Source of the DNA: a virus
Lineage: Duplodnaviria > Heunggongvirae > Uroviricota > Caudoviricetes
Length of the DNA: 33,423 nucleotides
IMG/VR virus record: IMGVR_UViG_2563366995_000002
Direction: 5' to 3' (one strand)
Of this stretch, positions 3,308 to 12,289 are shown one piece after another. The notes below the pieces were generated by a model. It made no database searches and was not told the DNA's origin. It was given only the letters and a program-made list of their open reading frames with translations. Both the position numbers and the translations under genes were made by a program. How positions within the stretch are numbered: the stretch's first letter is position 1; every line of letters starts with the position of its first letter.

Positions 3308-4089
3308 GCTGCCACCTTCTGCTCAGTGGCTTTCTGTTTCAGGAATCCAAGAGCTTTCACTGCTTCGGCCTGTGTCAGTTCTGACGATGCGCGAATGTCG
3401 CGGCGAAATATCTGGGAACAGAGCGGCAATAAGTCGTCATCCCATGTTTTGTCCAGGGCAATCAGCAGAGTGTTAATCTCCTGCATGGTTTCATCGTTAA
3501 CCGGAGTGATGTCGCGTTCCGGCTGACGTTCTGCAGTGTATGCGGTATTTTCGACAATGCGCTCGGCTTCATCCTTGTCATAGATACCAGCAAATCCGAA
3601 GGCCAGACGGGCACACTGAATCATGGCTTTATGCCGTAACATCCGTTTGGGATGCGACTGCCACGGCCCCGTGATTTCTCTGCCTTCGCGGGTTTTGAAT
3701 GGTTCGCGGCGGCATTCATCCATCCACTCGGTAACGCAGATCGGATGATTGCGGTCTTTGCGGTAAATCCGGCATGTACATGATTCATTGTCCTGCTCAA
3801 AGTCCATACCATCAAACTGCTGGTTTTCATTGATGATGCGGGACCAGCCATCAACGCCCACCACCGGAACAATGCCGTTCTGCTTATCAGGGAAGGCGTA
3901 AATTTCTTTCGTCCACGGATTAAGGCCGTACTGGTTGGCGACGATCAACAATGCGATGAACTGCGCATCGCTGGCATCACCTTTAAATGCCGTCTGGCGA
4001 AGAGTGGTGATCAGTTCCTGTGGGTCGACAGAATCCATGCCGACACGTTCAGCCAGCTTCCCTGCCAGCGTTGCGAGTGCTGTACTCAT
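3304..4089 (-). CDS. bet: Bet single-strand annealing recombinase (Red beta)
   Basis: 261 aa, N-terminus [26 protein letters not shown] and overall sequence match lambda Bet. Confidence 0.95.
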
Positions 4090-4094
4090 CCGTT

Positions 4095-4391
4095 TTATAC
4101 CTCTGAATCAATATCAGCCTGATGGTGAGCAATGGTTTCAACTATGTACCGGATGTGTTCTGCTATGCGCTCCTGAAACTCAACATCGTCATCAAACGCA
4201 CGGGTAATGGCTTTTTTGCTGGCCCCGTGGCGTTGTAAATGATCGATGCATAGCGATTCAAACAGGTGCTGGGGCAGGCCTTTTTCCATGTCGTCTGCCA
4301 GTTCTGCCTCTTTCTCTTCACGGGCGATCTGCTGGTAGTGACGCGCCCAGCTCTGAGCCTCAAGACGATCCTGAATGTAATAAGCGTTCAT
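4095..4391 (-). CDS. gam: Gam, RecBCD inhibitor (98-aa form)
   Basis: [21 protein letters not shown]... matches lambda GamS. Confidence 0.95.
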
Positions 4392-4466
4392 GGCTGAACT
4401 CCTGAAAATGGCTGTGAAAATATCGCCCGCGAAATGCCAGGCTGATTAGGAAAACAGGAAAGGGGG

Positions 4467-4610
4467 TTAGTGAATGCTTTTGCTTGATCTCAGTTTCAGT
4501 ATTAATATCCATTTTTTATAAGCGTCGACGGCCTCACGAAACATCTTTTCATCGCCAATAAAAGTGGCGATAGTGAATTTAGTCTGGATAGCCATAATTG
4601 TTTGATCCAT
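4467..4610 (-). CDS. kil: Kil, host cell-division inhibitor
   Basis: 47 aa from the internal Met of ORF 4467..4736 ([47 protein letters not shown]), matching lambda Kil. Confidence 0.85.
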
Positions 4611-4743
4611 TTTTTGGGACTCCTGGCTGATTAAGTATGTCGATAAGGCGTTTCCATCCGTCACGTAATTTACGGGTGATTCGTTCAAGTAAAGATTCGG
4701 AAGGGCAGCCAGCAACAGGCCACCCTGCAATGGCATATTGCAT
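4579..4743 (-). CDS. cIII: CIII, FtsH (HflB) protease inhibitor
   Basis: Manual translation of the minus strand gives [54 protein letters not shown] (54 aa), matching lambda CIII; 3' end overlaps kil start as in lambda. Under 60 aa so absent from the ORF track. Confidence 0.85.
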   Translation of the reverse strand: MQYAIAGWPVAGCPSESLLERITRKLRDGWKRLIDILNQPGVPKNGSNNYGYPD

Positions 4744-4815
4744 GGTGTGCTCCTTATTTATACATAACGAAAAACGCCTCGAGTGAAGCGTAATTGGTAT
4801 GCGGTAACGCCGCGC

Positions 4816-5184
4816 TCAGGCGGCCTTGATAGTCATATCATCTGAATCAAATATTCCTGATGTATCGATATCGGTAATTCTTATTCCTTCACTACCATCC
4901 ATTGGAGGCCATCCTTCCTGACCATTTCCATCATTCCAGTCGAACTCACACACAACACCATATGCATTTAAGTCGCTTGAAATTGCTATAAGCAGAGCAT
5001 GTTGCGCCAGCATGATTAATACAGCATTTAATACAGAGCCGTGTTTATTGAGTCGGTATTCAGAGTCTGACCAGAAATTATTAATCTGGTGAAGTTTTTC
5101 CTCTGTCATTACGTCATGGTCAATTTCAATTTCTATTGATGCTTTCCAGTCGTAATCAATGATGTATTTTTTGATGTTTGACAT
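4816..5184 (-). CDS. ea10: Ea10 (early-region ssDNA-binding protein of lambda)
   Basis: 122 aa, matches lambda Ea10 from memory. Confidence 0.8.
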   Translation of the reverse strand: MSNIKKYIIDYDWKASIEIEIDHDVMTEEKLHQINNFWSDSEYRLNKHGSVLNAVLIMLAQHALLIAISSDLNAYGVVCEFDWNDGNGQEGWPPMDGSEGIRITDIDTSGIFDSDDMTIKAA

Positions 5185-5202
5185 CTATTCATATCCTCAT
5201 AG

Positions 5203-5232
5203 ATAAAAAATCGCCCTCACACTGGAGGGCAA
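5203..5232 (-). terminator. rho-independent terminator in the pL operon between ral and ea10 (tL-type)
   Basis: Minus strand: GCCCTCCAGTGTGAGGGC hairpin followed by GATTTTTTATC. Confidence 0.6.
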
Positions 5233-5366
5233 AGAAGATTTCCAATAATCAGAACAAGTCGGCTCCTGTTTAGTTACGAGCGACATTGCTCCGTGTATTC
5301 ACTCGTTGGAATGAATACACAGTGCAGTGTTTATTCTGTTATTTATGCCAAAAATAAAGGCCACTA

Positions 5367-5567
5367 TCAGGCAGCTTTGTTGTTCTGTTTACCAAGTTCT
5401 CTGGCAATCATTGCCGTCGTTCGTATTGCCCATTTATCGACATATTTCCCATCTTCCATTACAGGAAACATTTCTTCAGGCTTAACCATGCATTCCGATT
5501 GCAGCTTGCATCCATTGCATCGTTTGAATTGTCCACACCATTGATTTGTATCAATAGTCGTAGTCAT
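5367..5567 (-). CDS. ral: Ral, restriction alleviation protein
   Basis: 66 aa MTTTIDTNQWCGQFKRCNGCKLQSECMVKPEE..., matches lambda Ral. Confidence 0.85.
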   Translation of the reverse strand: MTTTIDTNQWCGQFKRCNGCKLQSECMVKPEEMFPVMEDGKYVDKWAIRTTAMIARELGKQNNKAA

Positions 5568-5637
5568 ACGGATAGTCCTGGTATTGTTCCATCACATCTT
5601 GAGGATGCTCTTCGAACTCTTCAAATTCTTCTTCCAT
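5551..5637 (-). CDS. orf28-like acidic peptide
   Basis: Manual translation MEEEFEEFEEHPQDVMEQYQDYPYDYDY (28 aa) overlapping the ral start, as for lambda orf28. Confidence 0.5.
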   Translation of the reverse strand: MEEEFEEFEEHPQDVMEQYQDYPYDYDY

Positions 5638-5780
5638 ATATCACCTTAAATAGTGGATTGCGGTAGTAAAGATTGTGCCTGTCTTTTAACCACATCAGGC
5701 TCGGTGGTTCTCGTGTACCCCTACAACGAGAAATCGGATAAACTCTATTCACCCCTACAGAGAGCAAAAGAGAAACGCCG

Positions 5781-6362
5781 ATGAACAACTCATGGTGGCA
5801 GGAACTAATGCATTTTTTCCTGCAAGGAATGACACTTAAACAGTTGATTCATATGCTAATCATCCTGATCATATTGATTATTGTTATGCCGGTAAGCGTA
5901 AAAGAATGGATAAACCTGCATAATCCAGAAATCCTTCCTCATTACTGGATGTATTACATCCTGTTGTTTTGCGTTAGCTATGTGCTTAACGGCGTTGTTA
6001 ATTCCGCTTATCACGCTGTGACTGAAAGAATTGAGGTATTCGCTGCTCAGAAGCGCAAATCTAAAGAAGAAAAATATGTGCAAGATTTGTTTGATTCGTT
6101 AACTCTTGGAGAAAGAGCGTATTTGGCATTCGCTGTAGCCGCTAATAACCAGCTACAAACGGAAAAGGGCGCTCATGAATCAATTTCATTGCTCAAAAAA
6201 GGACTCCTCGTTCGAAGGCCTCCTGCTGTTGGATATCCTGATACCGACCGTTTCGTTATCCCTGAAAGCTATAGACATGAGTGCTACATTAGGTTTGCCG
6301 GGAAGGCAGACAGCCTTATGGATGAACTTATCGCTCAGGATAAGCATGGCAAAAACAAGTAA
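5781..6362 (+). CDS. sieB: SieB superinfection exclusion protein B
   Basis: 193 aa on the opposite strand between ral and N; strongly hydrophobic segment LIHMLIILIILIIVMPV; position and size match lambdoid sieB. Confidence 0.8.
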   Translation: MNNSWWQELMHFFLQGMTLKQLIHMLIILIILIIVMPVSVKEWINLHNPEILPHYWMYYILLFCVSYVLNGVVNSAYHAVTERIEVFAAQKRKSKEEKYVQDLFDSLTLGERAYLAFAVAANNQLQTEKGAHESISLLKKGLLVRRPPAVGYPDTDRFVIPESYRHECYIRFAGKADSLMDELIAQDKHGKNK

Positions 6363-6378
6363 TTAGCAAATGAATTTA

Positions 6379-6651
6379 TCATCTCGCCGTCAGTTGTTTT
6401 GATTTCCGGTAGCCTGCCGCGTAAAGAGCTACGTTCGGAAGACAAGTTGAACCTTCATATTTTCTGGTCAACGTTGTCAGAGTTATCACTTCTGCTCTCA
6501 TTGCTGGTTTGAGCTTGCATTGCAAGACCACTCGTGAAGGGGTTGGCCTGTGTAGCTTGTCGGAGCTGATCGCCTCCTGACTTTGCAGATTTGCGCGACG
6601 AGCTCTACGGCGAGAAGCTGCGGTGCCTTTAAATTCTGTTTTTCTGGACAT
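6379..6651 (-). CDS. N: N-like transcription antitermination protein (non-lambda specificity)
   Basis: Start taken at internal Met MSRKTEFKGTAASRRRARRANLQ preceded by GGGAGG SD; arginine-rich motif near the N-terminus as in N proteins; located downstream of pL/nutL. Sequence differs from lambda N. Confidence 0.75.
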   Translation of the reverse strand: MSRKTEFKGTAASRRRARRANLQSQEAISSDKLHRPTPSRVVLQCKLKPAMRAEVITLTTLTRKYEGSTCLPNVALYAAGYRKSKQLTAR

Positions 6652-6749
6652 GGATTCCTCCCGAATAAACTTTGGCGATGCAATCTCGAAGCTCCTCCTG
6701 AGACGGTTGCTTCGGCATTGCATCCCACAGCTTATGTGGTTGGGTGATC

Positions 6750-6794
6750 TGGCTTTTCAGCCACGTAGTCGAGAGTCGACGTTGTTTAAAGAGC
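6750..6794 (-). promoter_or_regulatory. nutL: nutL (boxA + boxB)
   Basis: Minus strand reads GGCTCTTTAAACAACG...CTAC-G-TGGCTGAAAAGCCA: boxA-like GCTCTTTA followed by a stem-loop with GAAAA loop; near-identical architecture recurs at nutR. Confidence 0.7.
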
Positions 6795-6799
6795 CTGCC

Positions 6800-6900
6800 A
6801 GTCTGTTCCATTTGGCTTCCAGCGTCCTGCTGACGGTTAAATAGTACGATATGTACTTTACAAGATCAATACAATTTGTTGTAAGTTGGCGTGGTTTTTT
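6800..6900 (-). promoter_or_regulatory. pL promoter / OL operator region (approximate)
   Basis: Intergenic AT-rich segment between the nutL and the terminator of the cI operon; contains inverted repeats (TACAATTTGTTGTA) and a motif AAAGTACATATCGTA shared with the OR region. Exact -35/-10 and operator boundaries not resolved. Confidence 0.45.
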
Positions 6901-7054
6901 ATAACGCTTTGTATTTAATAGTGTTGTTTTTTAGCGTGGATGTATTGCCTCGGCGATGTAAGGAGAGATCAGAATTGCGTGGTTTAGTGGGTTGCATCTA
7001 TTTATTTTTCAATAAATATAATTGGTTATGTGTTTTTAGGTGGGCGAACGTGAG

Positions 7055-7083
7055 GCAAAGAAAACCCGGCGCTGAGGCCGGGT
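7055..7083 (-). terminator. rho-independent terminator ending the cI-geneA-geneB operon
   Basis: Minus strand: AACCCGGCCTCAGCGCCGGGTTTTCTTTG, GC-rich stem plus U-tract immediately after the stop of the 250-aa ORF; analogous to tIMM after rexB in lambda. Confidence 0.7.
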
Positions 7084-7087
7084 TGTA

Positions 7088-7840
7088 TTATGCTGCAAGT
7101 CTCTTAACCCAAGTCTCTCTTTTGGAGAATGGTAGAACTTGGCTTGATTCATGGAAGAGTAAGGAGAGTTGTTGCATTTGATCACCAATTGCTTCGCTGT
7201 CTATAACAACAAATCTGTTGTTATACTCCTCACTTGAAGCTTTAAGATCAATTAGTTTCCCAAGCAATGAGTAAGCACTATTCCAGCTTCCTCCGTGTTT
7301 CACGCTTGATGTAAAAACGTATTTAGGTATGTCGGTTTTTATTGTTACAGGGACGGTAATTTGATGTCCACTCAAGCCATATACGTTTTCACGAAGAGAA
7401 AGTGCGTCTCTAAGCTCTGTGTGATATAGATAATCAATAACCATACTTTCAAACTTTTCAGCTTGAACTGGCTGATACCAGTCTAACGACAAAGTTGATG
7501 CGAGTATACCAGCTCTAATTATGTTCGATGTAATCGCACCGACATCCTTTTCTGTTGCCCAAGCAATGATTTCTCCTCGAGCATTGAGTTCTGCGCCTTC
7601 TTTAAGCAGTAATTGTCGTATCTCATCAAGTCGTTTTTTGGTAAGCGAGATCCCTCTTGCCTCCATATTCATTAAGGCATCGCATCTGTCACTAACTAAA
7701 TACCTACCATTGACTTCACGGATAAAGGCACCGACATGCTCTCCATCATCACAGTAAGTGAATGGACTGATAATTCTCAAGGTCTTGCCTATTGGATGGC
7801 ATTCGAAACCTAGTTGTGAGATCACTGTTGAGCACATCAT
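7088..7840 (-). CDS. hypothetical protein B of cI-linked cassette (250 aa), function unknown
   Basis: ORF whose start overlaps the stop of the upstream 185-aa ORF by 4 nt (ATGA); followed by terminator; no motif I can assign. Confidence 0.8.
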   Translation of the reverse strand: MMCSTVISQLGFECHPIGKTLRIISPFTYCDDGEHVGAFIREVNGRYLVSDRCDALMNMEARGISLTKKRLDEIRQLLLKEGAELNARGEIIAWATEKDVGAITSNIIRAGILASTLSLDWYQPVQAEKFESMVIDYLYHTELRDALSLRENVYGLSGHQITVPVTIKTDIPKYVFTSSVKHGGSWNSAYSLLGKLIDLKASSEEYNNRFVVIDSEAIGDQMQQLSLLFHESSQVLPFSKRETWVKRLAA

Positions 7841-8394
7841 ATTCCAAACCCCATTTGCCCCGACTCATCTTCAAGCGGTAAAGGTATTCTCCCAGAGTAA
7901 GTTATGTTCAGATGTTTACAGAAGTAATTCCAATACCCTACCAGGTCATCTGGGTTTATGTCATCTTCGATTGGAAACGCTATTCTATCACTATAGTATC
8001 CAGCTTCTTCATAGTATACATGGTAGTGAGCACCGTAAATGATATCTTGGTACTTCGGATGATCGACCTTGTAACTATTCGTGTGTTTGTCAAAGTGATA
8101 GGTATCTACCGCGAAAACCCTCTTGTTATGATAGAAAGCAATAATATTTATTTTAGGGTAAGAAATCGGGTCATCAGGTTCTGAATCCTGATCTGGTTTC
8201 CATTTCAGTTCAAACTTTAGCCCTTGTATAGGTATACAATCCTCATCCAAGGGGATGATATGGGCTTGTAGCCACATATCAGAGCGACTTGGTTTCTGTT
8301 TCCATTTAACGCCAGAAAAGTTAACTATTTTTTTACAATAAAGTACTTTATCAACTTCTACTTGGCTTGGCTGATAATCATCTATTTTTGCCAA
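7837..8394 (-). CDS. hypothetical protein A of cI-linked cassette (185 aa), function unknown; start codon uncertain (TTG at 8394 with AGGGCGG SD, or downstream ATG)
   Basis: ORF begins about 40 bp downstream of cI stop on the same strand; Tyr/His/Trp-rich, no clear transmembrane segment; AT-rich codon usage. Confidence 0.7.
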   Translation of the reverse strand: MAKIDDYQPSQVEVDKVLYCKKIVNFSGVKWKQKPSRSDMWLQAHIIPLDEDCIPIQGLKFELKWKPDQDSEPDDPISYPKINIIAFYHNKRVFAVDTYHFDKHTNSYKVDHPKYQDIIYGAHYHVYYEEAGYYSDRIAFPIEDDINPDDLVGYWNYFCKHLNITYSGRIPLPLEDESGQMGFGI

Positions 8395-8433
8395 TGTTTA
8401 CCGCCCTGTAAATTGTAGATAAAAGTGGTTTCA

Positions 8434-9093
8434 TCACCCAAACGTCTCTTCAGGCCATTGGCTGGCGATAACTTTCCCCACAACGGAACAACTCTCATTG
8501 CATGGGATCATTGGGTATTGTGGGTTTAGTGGCTGTAGAAACACCTGACCGCTATCCCTGATCAGTTTCTTGAAGGTAAATTCATCACCACCAAGTCTGG
8601 CTATGCAGAAATCGCCGGGCTCAACAGCTTGCTCAGGGTCAACCAGAATTAACATCCCGTCAGGAAAGCTGGGTTTGGAACCTGTTGGTGCGGTCATTGA
8701 GTTACCTTCAACCTCAAGCCAGAATGCAGAGTCACTGGCTTTTTTGGTTGTGCTTACCAATCTCTCCGCATCGCCTTTGGTAAAGGTTCTGAGTTCTGGA
8801 GAGAACATCCCAGCCTGAACATGAGAAAAAACAGGGTACTCATATTGTTTTTTAACTGGGGCCGATGAGTATTCGCCAACAGGTGAAAATGTCCCGTCGT
8901 GGTTGAATGATATGTTATCAATACCAAGGTATTTAAACACCACACCAATATCACTAAGAGATGGATGACGAGATCCGCGCAACCAGTGTCCAATCCCACC
9001 CTGCGTCATACCTAGCTCTTCGGCTAACTTCTCTTGAGTTATGCCGAGCTCTTTCATTCTGGATCTAGCCAGTTCATACCATTTCATTTTCAT
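8434..9093 (-). CDS. cI: CI prophage repressor (LexA-like S24 autopeptidase); mosaic: novel N-terminal HTH domain fused to lambda-type C-terminal domain
   Basis: C-terminal ~130 aa match lambda CI ([20 protein letters not shown] ... [16 protein letters not shown]); N-terminal ~85 aa unrelated to lambda CI. Start could be 9093 or 9087 (MKMKW / MKW); ORF extends to 9135. Confidence 0.9.
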
Positions 9094-9204
9094 GTCCTTA
9101 TTATTACGCTCTGTACTGGAACCATCCATGCACAATGTGTATTTTTACTTGTATTCGCAAAGTACATATTGTATTTTTTTATTCGTGTTTACTATGGAGG
9201 GCAT
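9094..9204. promoter_or_regulatory. OR operator region with divergent promoters pRM and pR (approximate)
   Basis: Intergenic region between divergent cI and cro; inverted repeats TACTT-N9-AAGTA and TACA-TAT-TGTA; possible -10 TACTAT; shares AAAGTACATAT with the OL region. Confidence 0.6.
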
Positions 9205-9420
9205 ATGAGCAACCTACGAAAATATCGAGAGTCACTGAATATCTCTCAAACAACACTTGCTAAGGCAGTTGGATGCACACAGGGAGCTATCGGACATTGG
9301 GAATCTGGTCGTCGCTTCCCAGACCTTAAAACATGCCGTGCTCTTGTTGCGTGCCTAAACAAGTTAGGCGCAAAAGTCAGTCTTGATGACGTGTTCCCGC
9401 CGGAACACAAAGCCGCTTAA
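9205..9420 (+). CDS. cro: Cro-like HTH regulator (non-lambda)
   Basis: 71 aa from internal Met of ORF 9034..9420 with GGAGGG SD; HTH-like segment QTTLAKAVGCTQGAIGHWESG; first gene rightward of OR. Confidence 0.8.
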   Translation: MSNLRKYRESLNISQTTLAKAVGCTQGAIGHWESGRRFPDLKTCRALVACLNKLGAKVSLDDVFPPEHKAA

Positions 9421-9429
9421 TAAGCGGAT

Positions 9430-9477
9430 CCGCTCTTTGTAACAACGGACATTCGTCCTACGTCGCTGAAAAGCGAG
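9430..9477 (+). promoter_or_regulatory. nutR: nutR (boxA + boxB)
   Basis: CCGCTCTTTGTAACAACG ... CTACG-TCGCTGAAAAGCGA, same architecture as nutL with one stem base-pair changed. Confidence 0.65.
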
Positions 9478-9561
9478 TTCCAAGATATCTGACCAACTAA
9501 GGCCATATGCGTTTCCACGCATACCTTTCAACTAACTATTCACTATTGGAAATCTTAAGAA

Positions 9562-9858
9562 ATGGAAAGAACAAGTTACAGCAAACTATCACAGCGTGAC
9601 GTTGATCGCGCAGAAACAGATTTACTTATCAATCTGTCAGCTATTACCCAGCGCGGTCTGGCAAAGATGATTGGCTGTCATGAATCGAAGATAAGCAGAA
9701 CGGACTGGAGATTTATTGCTTCGGTCTTGTGTGCTTTCGGAATGGCATCAGACATCAGTCCGATTAGCAGGGCTTTTAAGTATGCGCTTGATGGACTCAC
9801 CAATAAAAAACGCCCGGCGGCAACCGAGCGTTCTGAACAAATCCAGATGGAATTCTGA
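9562..9858 (+). CDS. cII: CII transcriptional activator (hybrid: divergent N-terminus, lambda-identical C-terminus)
   Basis: C-terminal LTNKKRPAATERSEQIQMEF matches lambda CII; N-terminal region differs. Confidence 0.85.
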   Translation: MERTSYSKLSQRDVDRAETDLLINLSAITQRGLAKMIGCHESKISRTDWRFIASVLCAFGMASDISPISRAFKYALDGLTNKKRPAATERSEQIQMEF

Positions 9859-9890
9859 GGTCATTACTGGATCAATCCACAGGAGTCATT

Positions 9891-10790
9891 ATGACAAATA
9901 CAGCAAAAATACTCAACTTCTGCAGAGGTAACTTTGCCAAACAGGAGCGTAATGTGGCAGATCTCGATGATGGTTACGCCAGACTATCAAATATGCTGCT
10001 TGAGGCTTATTCAGGCGCAGATCTGACCAAGCGACAGTTTAAAGTGCTGCTTGCCATTCTGCGTAAAACCTATGGATGGAATAAACCAATGGACAGAATC
10101 ACCGATTCTCAACTTAGCGAGATTACAAAGTTACCCGTCAAACGGTGCAATGAAGCCAAGTTAGAACTCGTCAGAATGAATATTATCAAGCAGCAAGGCG
10201 GCATGTTTGGACCAAATAAAAACATCTCAGAATGGTGTATCCCTCAAAACGAGGGAAAATCCCCTAAAACGAGGGATAAAACATCCCTCAAATTGGGGGA
10301 TTGCTATCCCTCAAAACAGGGGGACACAAAAGACACTATTACAAAAGAAAAAAGAAAAGATTATTCGTCAGAGAATTCTGGCGAATCCTCTGACCAGCCA
10401 GAAAACGACCTTTCTGTGGTGAAACCGGATGCTGCAATTCAGAGCGGCAGCAAGTGGGGGACAGCAGAAGACCTGACCGCCGCAGAATGGATGTTTGACA
10501 TGGTGAAGACCATCGCGCCATCAGCCAGAAAACCGAATTTTGCAGGGTGGGCTAACGATATCCGCCTGATGCGTGAACGTGACGGACGTAACCATCGCGA
10601 CATGTGTGTACTGTTCCGCTGGGCATGCCAGGACAACTTCTGGTCCGGTAACGTGCTGAGCCCGGCCAAACTCCGCGACAAGTGGACCCAGCTCGAAATC
10701 AACCGTAACAAGCAACAGGCAGGTGTGACAGCCTGCAAACCAAAACTCGACCTGACAAACACTGACTGGATTTACGGGGTGGATTTATGA
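9891..10790 (+). CDS. O: replication initiator O
   Basis: 299 aa, near-identical to lambda O from memory; contains ori iterons. Confidence 0.95.
   Translation: MTNTAKILNFCRGNFAKQERNVADLDDGYARLSNMLLEAYSGADLTKRQFKVLLAILRKTYGWNKPMDRITDSQLSEITKLPVKRCNEAKLELVRMNIIKQQGGMFGPNKNISEWCIPQNEGKSPKTRDKTSLKLGDCYPSKQGDTKDTITKEKRKDYSSENSGESSDQPENDLSVVKPDAAIQSGSKWGTAEDLTAAEWMFDMVKTIAPSARKPNFAGWANDIRLMRERDGRNHRDMCVLFRWACQDNFWSGNVLSPAKLRDKWTQLEINRNKQQAGVTACKPKLDLTNTDWIYGVDL
10239..10372 (+). repeat. ori-lambda: four iterons plus AT-rich region inside O
   Basis: Four tandem copies of ATCCCTCAAAACGAGGGA-like 18-19 bp inverted-repeat units (10239..10325) followed by A-rich tract AAAAGAAAAAAGAAAAG. Confidence 0.85.
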
Positions 10791-11488
10791 AAAACATCGC
10801 CGCACAGATGGTTAATTTTGACCGTGAGCAGATGCGTCGGATCGCCAACAACATGCCGGAACAGTACGACGAAAAGCCGCAGGTACAGCAGGTAGCGCAG
10901 ATCATCAACGGTGTGTTCAGCCAGTTACTGGCAACTTTCCCGGCGAGTCTGGCTAACCGTGACCAGAACGAACTGAACGAAATCCGCCGCCAGTGGGTTC
11001 TGGCTTTCCGGGAAAACGGGATCACCACAATGGAACAGGTTAACGCAGGAATGCGCGTAGCCCGTCGGCAGAATCGACCATTTCTGCCATCACCCGGGCA
11101 GTTTGTTGCATGGTGCCGGGAAGAAGCATCCGTTATCGCCGGACTGCCAAACGTCAGCGAGCTGGTTGATATGGTTTACGAGTATTGCCGGAAGCGAGGC
11201 CTGTATCCGGATGCAGAGTCTTATCCGTGGAAATCGAACGCGCACTACTGGCTGGTTACCAACCTGTACCAGAACATGCGGGCCAATGCGCTGACTGACG
11301 CGGAATTACGACGCAAGGCTGCCGATGAACTGACCTGTATGACAGCGCGAATTAACCGTGGTGAGACGATACCTGAACCAGTAAAACAACTTCCTGTCAT
11401 GGGCGGCAGACCTCTAAATCGTGTTCAGGCGCTGGCGAAGATCGCAGAAATTAAAGCTAAGTTAGGACTGAAAGGAGCAAGTGTATGA
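10787..11488 (+). CDS. P: replication protein P (DnaB helicase loader)
   Basis: 233 aa, matches lambda P; start overlaps O stop. Confidence 0.95.
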   Translation: MKNIAAQMVNFDREQMRRIANNMPEQYDEKPQVQQVAQIINGVFSQLLATFPASLANRDQNELNEIRRQWVLAFRENGITTMEQVNAGMRVARRQNRPFLPSPGQFVAWCREEASVIAGLPNVSELVDMVYEYCRKRGLYPDAESYPWKSNAHYWLVTNLYQNMRANALTDAELRRKAADELTCMTARINRGETIPEPVKQLPVMGGRPLNRVQALAKIAEIKAKLGLKGASV

Positions 11489-11775
11489 CGGGCAAAGAGG
11501 CAATTATTCATTACCTGGGGACGCATAATAGCTTCTGTGCGCCGGACGTTGCCGCGCTAACAGGCGCAACAGTAACCAGCATAAATCAGGCCGCGGCTAA
11601 AATGGCACGGGCAGGTCTTCTGGTTATCGAAGGTAAGGTCTGGCGAACGGTGTATTACCGGTTTGCTACCAAGGAAGAACGGGAAGGAAAGATGAGCACG
11701 AACCTGATTTTTAAGGAGTGTCGCCAGAGTGCCACGATGAAACGGATATTGGCGGTATATGGAGTTAAAAGATGA
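11485..11775 (+). CDS. ren: Ren (Rex exclusion escape protein)
   Basis: 96 aa matching lambda Ren; overlaps P stop. Confidence 0.9.
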   Translation: MTGKEAIIHYLGTHNSFCAPDVAALTGATVTSINQAAAKMARAGLLVIEGKVWRTVYYRFATKEEREGKMSTNLIFKECRQSATMKRILAVYGVKR

Positions 11776-11800
11776 CCATCTACATCACTGAGCTAATAAC

Positions 11801-11831
11801 AGGCCTGCAGGTAATCGCAGGCCTTTTTATT
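11801..11831 (+). terminator. rho-independent terminator (tR2 equivalent)
   Basis: AGGCCTGCAGGTAATCGCAGGCCTTTTTATTT between ren and ninB. Confidence 0.7.
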
Positions 11832-11848
11832 TGGGGGAGAGGGAAGTC

Positions 11849-12289
11849 ATGAAAAAACTAACCTTTGAAATTCGATCTCCGGCACATCAGCAAAACGCTA
11901 TTCACGCAGTACAGCAAATCCTTCCAGACCCAACCAAACCAATCGTAGTAACCATTCAGGAACGCAACCGCAGCTTAGACCAAAACAGGAAGCTATGGGC
12001 CTGCTTAGGTGACGTCTCTCGTCAGGTTGAATGGCATGGTCGCTGGCTGGATGCAGAAAGCTGGAAGTGTGTGTTTACCGCAGCATTAAAGCAGCAGGAT
12101 GTTGTTCCTAACCTTGCCGGGAATGGCTTTGTGGTAATAGGCCAGTCAACCAGCAGGATGCGTGTAAGCGAATTTGCGGAGCTATTAGAGCTTATACAGG
12201 CATTCGGTACAGAGCGTGGCGTTAAGTGGTCAGACGAAGCGCGACTGGCTCTCGAATGGAAAGCGCGATGGGGAGATCGGGCTGCATGA
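11849..12289 (+). CDS. ninB: NinB (Orf) recombination mediator
   Basis: MKKLTFEIRSPAHQQNAIHAVQQILPDPTKP... matches lambda NinB. Confidence 0.9.
   Translation: MKKLTFEIRSPAHQQNAIHAVQQILPDPTKPIVVTIQERNRSLDQNRKLWACLGDVSRQVEWHGRWLDAESWKCVFTAALKQQDVVPNLAGNGFVVIGQSTSRMRVSEFAELLELIQAFGTERGVKWSDEARLALEWKARWGDRAA

Follow-up and report, generated by a model that had tools for sequence, protein, structure and literature searches.

The 3,480 nt interval studied here, positions 6379-9858 of a 33,423 nt window (the whole stretch of phage DNA that was analysed), carries the gene for an N antiterminator, a two-gene cassette and the repressor gene cI on the minus strand, followed by cro and cII on the plus strand. 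The cI and cro genes diverge around a tripartite operator and a second tripartite operator is located at PL, which is the architecture of a lambdoid CI/Cro bistable switch. We consider it almost certain that the interval controls immunity and early gene expression in an intact lambda-like temperate phage of the ev017/ev207 type, and that its switch is of the described VT2-Sakai/Nil2/Stx2-II immunity type.

The interval is 100% identical to phages ev017, ev207, PhiR57_1 and PhiR63_2, the last two having ECOR13 as their listed host. It is also present at 100% identity in 236 of the 5,426 complete E. coli genomes over which all genome counts were taken, including Nissle 1917, UTI89, ATCC 25922, ABU 83972 and S88. 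The non-lambda core of the immunity region (8845-9795) is more widespread and was found in 631 of these genomes. The phage would correspond to the prophage with sitABCD that is carried by phylogroup-B2-type strains, among them Nissle 1917 and UTI89; this lambda-like prophage is frequent in E. coli from the gut and the urinary tract. No stx genes were seen in the relative ev017. Outside the cassette in the middle, the sequence is colinear at 93-97% identity with the Shiga toxin (Stx) phages Nil2, VT2-Sakai (Sp5), Stx2 phage II (Stx2-II), 1717, YYZ-2008 and 2851, which have the same gene order; with VT2-Sakai the identity is 93-96%. Compared with Nil2, CI is identical at 217 of 217 residues (the annotated Nil2 protein begins two residues later than ours), Cro at 71 of 71 and N at 89 of 90. 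CII is identical at 87 of 98 residues and all differences but two fall within the last 22 residues, the part in which it departs from the VT2-Sakai/Nil2 type. The other departures concern the cargo downstream of cI, discussed below, and the replication genes, which are of the lambda oop-O-P type in the window while the Sakai/Nil2 type has HK022-like or DnaB-type O and P genes. The alleles have been named CI2c, Cro4 and N2 by Smith et al. 2012 (PMC3430580), and lambda CI and the CI2c variants have a common C-terminus and different N-termini (PMC3430580). According to the summary in PMC10742460, Fattah et al. 2000 had reported high C-terminal and low N-terminal homology for VT2-Sakai CI. The immunity type is not new, and its patchwork repressor is real but ordinary, having been described for VT2-Sakai by 2000.

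Table 1. Genes, sites and lambda-like blocks in and around the interval (window coordinates)
Feature	Position	Strand	Basis or remark
N antiterminator, 90 residues ("N2" type of VT2-Sakai/1717/YYZ-2008)	6379-6651	minus	Pfam N_peptide E 1.5e-32
nutL	6750-6794	minus	boxA GCTCTTTAA at 6786-6794
nutL boxB TGGCTGAAAAGCCA	6750-6763	minus	TGGCT-GAAA-AGCCA
nutL spacer hairpin	6768-6780	minus	GTCGA-CTC-TCGAC
Putative PL	-35 6864-6869; -10 6841-6846	minus	TTGATC, 17 nt spacer, TACTAT; by analogy with lambda
OL1	6842-6858	minus	exact match to published VT2-Sakai operator
OL2	6867-6883	minus	one mismatch to published VT2-Sakai operator
OL3	6900-6916	minus	one mismatch to published VT2-Sakai operator
Left flank of cargo slot; lambda block just downstream of rexB	6963-7084	minus	90% identical to lambda 35708-35826 (blastn)
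Intrinsic terminator, hairpin and T run	7063-7084	minus	terminator scan, fold z = -3.3
Gene B, 250 residues, DUF1828, putative restriction-endonuclease-like fold	7088-7840	minus
Gene A, 185 residues	7837-8394	minus	weak DUF6978/PDC-M24A match
cI, 219 residues	8434-9093	minus	Pfam HTH_3 and Peptidase_S24
cI, hinge/cleavage site and S24 C-terminal domain, lambda-type	8434-8844	minus
cI, phage-L-c2-like helix-turn-helix N-terminal domain	8845-9093	minus
OR3	9102-9118	plus	exact match to VT2-Sakai operator
OR2	9128-9144	plus	exact match to VT2-Sakai operator
OR1	9160-9176	plus	exact match to VT2-Sakai operator
Putative PR	-35 9149-9154; -10 9172-9177	plus	TTGTAT, TATTTT; by analogy with PL
cro, 71 residues ("Cro4")	9205-9420	plus	Pfam HTH_3 E 4e-12
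nutR	9431-9476	plus	boxA CGCTCTTTG at 9431-9439
nutR spacer hairpin	9447-9458	plus	GGAC-ATTC-GTCC
nutR boxB TCGCTGAAAAGCGA	9463-9476	plus	TCGCT-GAAA-AGCGA
cII, 98 residues	9562-9858	plus	Pfam Phage_CII E 7e-34
cII body, VT2-Sakai/H-19B type	9562-9795	plus
cII last 20 codons and stop, lambda type	9796-9858	plus
Antisense oop RNA gene	9800-9885 (ends approximate)	minus	terminator scan, lambda identity
SieB-like gene, left of N	5781-6362		Pfam E 2.5e-22
Lambda-type O, right of cII	9891-10790
Lambda block gam to ral	4279-5760		98% (blastn)
Lambda block, cI 3′ 412 nt	8433-8844		93.4% (blastn)
Lambda block, cII last 63 nt, then O, P, ren, ninB	9796-12289		97% (blastn)

A preliminary description of this DNA, made from the letters of the sequence, had already recognized that CI combines a lambda-type C-terminal domain with a foreign N-terminal domain. 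This is clearly borne out: residues 84-219 are identical to lambda CI at 135 of 136 positions, compared with 19 of 83 (23%) for residues 1-83. The lambda homology in the DNA ends abruptly at the codon for Y84, equivalent to lambda Y101 and ten residues before the Ala111-Gly112 cleavage site; the C-terminal domain matches Peptidase_S24 (E 1e-28) and has the VQAGMF site. In lambda CI, the corresponding part is responsible for dimerisation, for pairwise and octamer cooperativity and for RecA-stimulated self-cleavage. By analogy, the CI encoded in the window would dimerise, bind cooperatively and be cleaved after RecA activation by means of its hinge and S24 domain. The N-terminal domain is a member of the phage L c2 family. 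Its kinship is discordant with that of the other half, as expected for domain shuffling at the hinge: identity with phage L c2 is 49% in the N-terminal and 44% in the C-terminal domain, while with Salmonella phage 101962B_sal5 it is 53% and 80%, respectively. Relative to lambda, the lambda-type part of the gene contains 26 synonymous codon differences and a single amino acid change (W129L), and this segment is under strong purifying selection. A recent exchange with lambda itself as the origin of the cI 3′ part was rejected on account of these 26 synonymous differences and an identity of 93.4%, compared to 97-98% in the flanking lambda-like blocks.

The six 17 bp operators, which were compared with the VT2-Sakai operator sequences in Table S1 of PMC10742460, have a consensus of about TAnTACnnnnTGTAnTT and would be bound by CI through its phage-L-c2-like helix-turn-helix (HTH) domain. 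Cro is as little lambda-like as the preliminary description had stated: it is an HTH_3 protein with 18 of 71 residues identical to lambda Cro in a forced alignment, and it belongs to a different fold family. CI and Cro are related to each other (BLASTP 35% over 62 residues, E 8e-11) and have in common the HTH motif TQGxIGHW, a similarity that fits two proteins reading the same operators. Cro, with its related recognition helix, would compete with CI for these sites. The DNA-binding domain of CI, Cro and the operator set are all the same as in the VT2-Sakai/Nil2 type.

The N protein also differs from that of lambda, as had been noted (25 of 90 residues identical in a forced alignment). In a tblastn search it is 98.9% identical to VT2-Sakai and about 41% identical to the N of Stx2 phage I (Stx2-I) and BP-4795. 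Its arginine-rich motif is GTAASRRRARRANLQ and its start, MSRKTEFKGTAASRRRARR, is similar to that of the Stx2-I protein, MTRRTQFKGNSRSRRRERL, with the same N-terminal MxRxTxFKG...SRRR motif as in the H-19B/Stx2-I/HK97-type N proteins. The C-terminus, CLPNVAxYAAGYRKSKQLTAR, is nearly the same as in the H-19B/HK97-type N of Stx2-I, and the middle is about 37 residues shorter. The N of the window is thus an abridged relative of the H-19B/HK97-type protein. Its last 22 codons (CLPNVALYAAGYRKSKQLTAR, 6379-6444, 66 nt) are 94% identical at the nucleotide level to the H-19B-type N of Stx2-I, which reveals a third intragenic mosaic junction, in the C-terminal part of N, that the preliminary description had not mentioned; the last 22 residues are 79-92% identical to the N proteins of P22, HK140 and HK630. 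The 114-residue open reading frame (ORF) 6379-6723, annotated as N in Nil2 and VT2-Sakai, was rejected as the N gene on the grounds that nutL lies inside the longer ORF and that the ATG at 6651 has a GGAGG sequence 6 nt ahead of it and aligns with the start of H-19B-type N. Public records disagree on the length of N, with 345 nt annotated in Nil2 as well as VT2-Sakai but 123 nt in ev017; the 273 nt ORF with a Shine–Dalgarno sequence fits best.

Together with an arginine-rich N, the window has boxA and boxB elements downstream of PL and PR, separated by a spacer hairpin, i.e. the same NUT layout as in the H-19B type. The two nut sites do share a boxB form, as had been claimed, with a GAAA loop in each. 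The common pattern has only two matches in 33 kb, both at the nut sites, against 0.10 expected. The nutL and nutR boxB stems differ by one compensatory G-C to C-G swap, and the spacer hairpins differ in sequence, both being paired. In the VT2-Sakai/Nil2-type phages boxB and the spacer hairpin are identical to those of the window at both sites. By contrast, in the H-19B/Stx2-I type the boxB loop of both nut sites is GACAA, i.e. five instead of four nucleotides, and the boxA of nutR reads CGCTATTTT instead of CGCTCTTTG. The GACAA pentaloop, detected at the nut sites of Stx2-I (H-19B-type N) and of phage L (gp24), is found at neither site of the window, while all five other phage loci examined with the 90-residue N (Nil2, VT2-Sakai, 2G7b, 2B8 and, by identity, ev017) have the GAAA loop at both nut sites. 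The Stx2-I boxB sites are at positions 4821 and 1322 of its own locus. Despite the one-base difference in the loop, the window and Stx2-I agree at about 92% in the sequences flanking nutR. The idea that the boxB form is matched to the type of N is supported by this co-variation across the loci examined, in which the loop type tracks the N type. The N/nut system of the window can thus be viewed as a distinct variant with an H-19B-like layout, in which N would load onto the PL and PR transcripts at nutL and nutR, and the GAAA tetraloop may be the sign of an N variant whose dependence on NusA is altered. In the literature searched, we found no description of VT2-Sakai-type nut sites, of a natural tetraloop boxB or of GAAA/GACAA co-variation. 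In the minimum free energy folds of the nut sites, boxA additionally base-pairs with the 3′ side of boxB; such an alternative boxA:boxB structure has been discussed for H-19B. Another hairpin (9506-9527, CATATGCGT-TTCC-ACGCATA region, fold z = -2.6), located between nutR and cII and kept in Sakai and Stx2-I, may belong to the tR1 region. An Rfam scan of positions 4000-12000 (E ≤ 1) matched only the lambda cIII thermoregulator RNA (RF01804, 88.5 bits, 4698-4756, inside the 98% lambda-like block), with no curated family covering nut or oop.

CII is a hybrid as well. Its last 20 residues (LTNKKRPAATERSEQIQMEF) are identical to lambda CII and the other 78 are about 26% identical, in agreement with the earlier observation that only the C-terminal end is of lambda type. 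According to windowed identities, the DNA from 9450 to 9799 is 83-100% identical to Sakai and Stx2-I (93-100% except 9599-9658) and not similar to lambda, while positions 9800-9859 are 96-100% identical to lambda and 70-76% to Sakai and Stx2-I. The following block, 9860-9889, holds the oop 5′ end and promoter and is conserved in all four phages compared; a conserved 33 bp oop promoter/5′ region has been described by Hayes and co-workers (PMC3349717). From 9890 on, O matches lambda and Stx2-I, not Sakai. The terminator scan placed a strong oop terminator hairpin at 9807-9834 on the minus strand, with a T run to about 9800. The start of the lambda block is therefore no more than about 5 nt away from the 3′ end of oop, and the identity of 96-100% extends without a break into O and P, which looks like a module boundary and not like a retained protein interface. 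The hybrid CII is probably best read as a by-product of an oop-O-P module that ends at the oop 3′ end, the last 20 codons belonging to this lambda-type replication module. This is the simpler explanation, and the hybrid does not look like the result of selection for a lambda-like CII interface. One might argue instead that the lambda-type tail was kept for a function in the protein, as a C-terminal FtsH/HflB degradation signal, and not because of the overlap with oop. The CII C-terminus signals rapid proteolysis, and the identity of all 20 residues with lambda would be compatible with such a role. However, apart from the position of the junction at the oop 3′ end, Sakai and Stx2-I have the same CII body with a different tail (DEITKKKSP...), so that the body works with either tail. 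Moreover, in Stx2-I a lambda-type O goes together with the Sakai-type tail, the switch occurring at the conserved 9860-9889 block, which points to recombination at DNA-level landmarks. We therefore regard retention of the tail for its protein function as unlikely.

A blastn comparison of the window with lambda 33000-41500 yields four homology blocks (Table 1) without detectable DNA similarity between them. With the architecture of the immunity region being the same, the gam-cIII-ral region (98%), the 122 bp terminator flank (90%) and the segment encoding the CII tail, oop, O, P and ren (96-100%) are close to lambda, whereas the N-terminal domain of CI, the operators, Cro and N, together with the nut sites, sieB and the body of CII, have at most a distant relationship to it, and another cassette takes the place of rexAB. 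The SieB-family protein, whose gene precedes N within the non-lambda block on the left, is identical to lambda SieB at only 34 of 193 residues. Mosaicism relative to lambda is thus real, and the preliminary description had correctly placed breakpoints inside cI and cII, where sharp junctions occur at 8844/8845 (the hinge) and 9795/9796, respectively. It went further in proposing that recombination at these points had created a new, undescribed immunity specificity, and the breakpoints as well as the low identity of the CI N-terminal domain with that of lambda could be cited in its favour. We see practically no room for this proposal. It is already refuted by the identity or near identity of CI, Cro and the six operators with those of Nil2/VT2-Sakai: CI, Cro, N and operators are of the VT2-Sakai/Nil2/Stx2-II/1717/YYZ-2008 type, and the region is colinear with this described type and indistinguishable from deposited phages. 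The type has been named (PMC3430580), was analysed by Fattah et al. 2000 according to the summary in PMC10742460, and is common among the E. coli genomes as stated above. In addition, the 26 synonymous differences in the lambda-shared part of cI imply that the exchange was old and that lambda itself was not involved. As originally stated, the finding adds nothing new; it is textbook lambdoid mosaicism with an allele described by 2000. It is also very improbable that the region belongs to a cryptic prophage and is decaying, with a switch that no longer works. Prophage 3 of Nissle 1917, a holder of the exact interval sequence, has been reported to be non-inducible and shorter than lambda (PMC5987069), which would suit such a remnant. 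However, every ORF is intact, the sequence is identical to that of the phage genomes ev017, ev207, PhiR57_1 and PhiR63_2, and 26 synonymous changes against a single non-synonymous one in the lambda-type part of cI are hardly what decay would leave behind. Several points nevertheless weigh against our assignment to a working VT2-Sakai/Nil2-type switch. Given the reported non-inducibility of the Nissle prophage, the window copy could sit in a defective prophage although the region itself is intact. VT2-Sakai cI carries a premature stop (PMC3430580), and biochemical data on this truncated gene may not transfer to the intact allele of the window. The occupancy of the operators, the positions of the promoters and the action of N at nut are deduced from homology; a sigma-70 promoter scan flagged neither PL (whose hexamers match at 8 of 12 positions) nor PR, and the promoters were therefore positioned by analogy only.

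The preliminary description had further called the region heteroimmune. This is appropriate insofar as the operators differ from those of lambda, but is called into question by the cross-immunity between VT2-Sakai and lambda reportedly seen by Fattah et al. 2000 (summarised in PMC10742460). The region might then not be truly heteroimmune: cross-talk with lambda-type repressors could come about if the lambda-identical C-terminal domain of CI allowed mixed dimers or octamers to form, or through weak cross-binding to operators. One would expect partial cross-immunity or mutual interference in polylysogens as a result. Dimerisation and cooperativity of lambda CI are mediated by the C-terminal domain, precisely the part in which the two repressors differ by one residue of 136. 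Lambda CI did bind VT2-Sakai operators in gel shifts, with an apparent dissociation constant of 3.7-6.4 µM (PMC10742460). However, these affinities are 10-25 times weaker than for lambda OR1/OL1 and resemble those measured with the Stx2-I operators, which are unrelated (PMC10742460); most of the binding would then be non-specific. The operator consensus is also unrelated to the lambda TATCACCGC type, and with a truncated cI allele in VT2-Sakai, the allele behind the cross-immunity reported by Fattah et al. is ambiguous. On balance we consider cross-talk as the cause of an incomplete heteroimmunity doubtful, if worth keeping in mind, and favour the assignment to the VT2-Sakai/Nil2 type with operators distinct from lambda. 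The suggestion that lambda-like partner interfaces had been retained fits the C-terminal domain of CI; it is questionable for CII, where the shared tail coincides with the oop terminator and the start of the oop-O-P module.

Downstream of cI, the homology with lambda and Sakai breaks off at 7084/7085, which is three bases beyond the stop of the 250-residue gene, and resumes at 8433/8436 at the cI stop codon. The left flank (6963-7084), which is also 82% identical to Stx2-I and 93% to VT2-Sakai, contains an intrinsic terminator that is the counterpart of the one ending the lambda cI-rex operon. Four different cargos occur behind the same cI: the A-B gene pair in ev017 and ev207, ORF22 (174 residues) in Nil2 and Sakai, a 283-residue protein in 2G7b and an NYN-domain protein in 2B8. 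Mosaicism is known to be concentrated in the interval between cI and N, where bstA is found as well. A swappable cargo slot lies between the cI stop codon and the terminator; it is taken by rexAB in lambda and by the DUF6978-like/DUF1828 pair in the window. This two-gene operon would presumably be co-transcribed with cI in lysogens.

The cassette (7088-8394) makes up more than one third of the interval and was absent from the preliminary description. It is present in 241 of the complete E. coli genomes, always at 99% identity or more. Its two genes overlap by 4 bp. The product of gene A has the invariant motif D97-x-Y-x2-D-x-H-x-N ... G121-x-H-x-H-x-Y-x-E129, and that of gene B the invariant residues D31, D32, E34, H35, H159, K173, D198 and D214. 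With its putative restriction-endonuclease-like fold, the gene B product is a candidate member of the PD-(D/E)xK nuclease superfamily. Homologues of both proteins with 47-84% identity are confined to Enterobacterales and Aeromonas. We compared nine further loci from eight other genera (Aeromonas, Yersinia, Pectobacterium, Izhakiella, Providencia with two species, Xenorhabdus, Pantoea and Thorsellia). Gene A immediately precedes gene B in all nine, with the 4 bp overlap also found in the three loci that have called genes, and the pair is always downstream of and co-directional with an HTH/S24 repressor facing a cro-like gene. In the prophages of Izhakiella (2044-2385) and of one Providencia locus (2053-2394; coordinates of the respective loci) an additional conserved 113-residue ORF (MAFNDIE...), absent from the window, lies between the repressor and the A-B pair. 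An 82% identical DUF1828 gene fragment on a 518 bp contig of Actinomadura rugatobispora is most likely enterobacterial DNA contamination.

Like RexAB and BstA, the cassette is directly downstream of and co-directional with cI and ends at the operon terminator, and like rexAB it consists of two genes. However, the proteins have no sequence or detected fold relationship with RexA, RexB or BstA. Searches of Pfam, PADLOC and PHROG gave no match to Rex families, and profile searches of both proteins against PDB sequences produced nothing below E 0.2. The PHROG families concerned are of unknown function. Gene B matches PADLOC PDC-M24 over its full length (E 4.7e-10) and gene A matches it weakly over residues 104-163 (E 4.8e-4), the PDC systems being unvalidated candidates themselves. 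Judging from its position, its synteny and its likely co-transcription with cI, the cassette may act in superinfection exclusion or abortive infection. It is quite conceivable, short of being probable, that the pair is a new anti-phage system linked to the repressor; the cI promoter would drive it in lysogens, where its function would be comparable to that of RexAB or BstA.

The sequence also bears on a published observation in Nissle 1917. From prophage 3, Bury et al. 2018 (PMC5987069) obtained a clone of a "phage repressor (pr, EcN_1294)" and observed an about 200-fold lower plating of lambda and Stx phages. When mapped onto the window, the published quantitative PCR primer falls at 9759-9776 and the cloning primers at 9516-9885. 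The pr fragment is the cII and oop region, not cI. Its phenotype more likely reflects high-copy CII and/or OOP, or the rep-lambda inhibition that Hayes et al. studied, than repressor immunity. This changes how the Nissle plating result should be read.

The only part of the region with real potential for novelty is the cassette downstream of cI, followed at some distance by the tetraloop boxB and a possible cross-talk between repressors. Two closely related N proteins whose boxB loops are one nucleotide apart provide a clean natural pair for the analysis of peptide-RNA specificity. The lambda-identical C-terminal domain of CI may cause cross-talk between repressors in polylysogens, and the A-B gene pair, as a possible lysogen-expressed counterpart of RexAB or BstA, is a reasonable candidate for defence-system screening.

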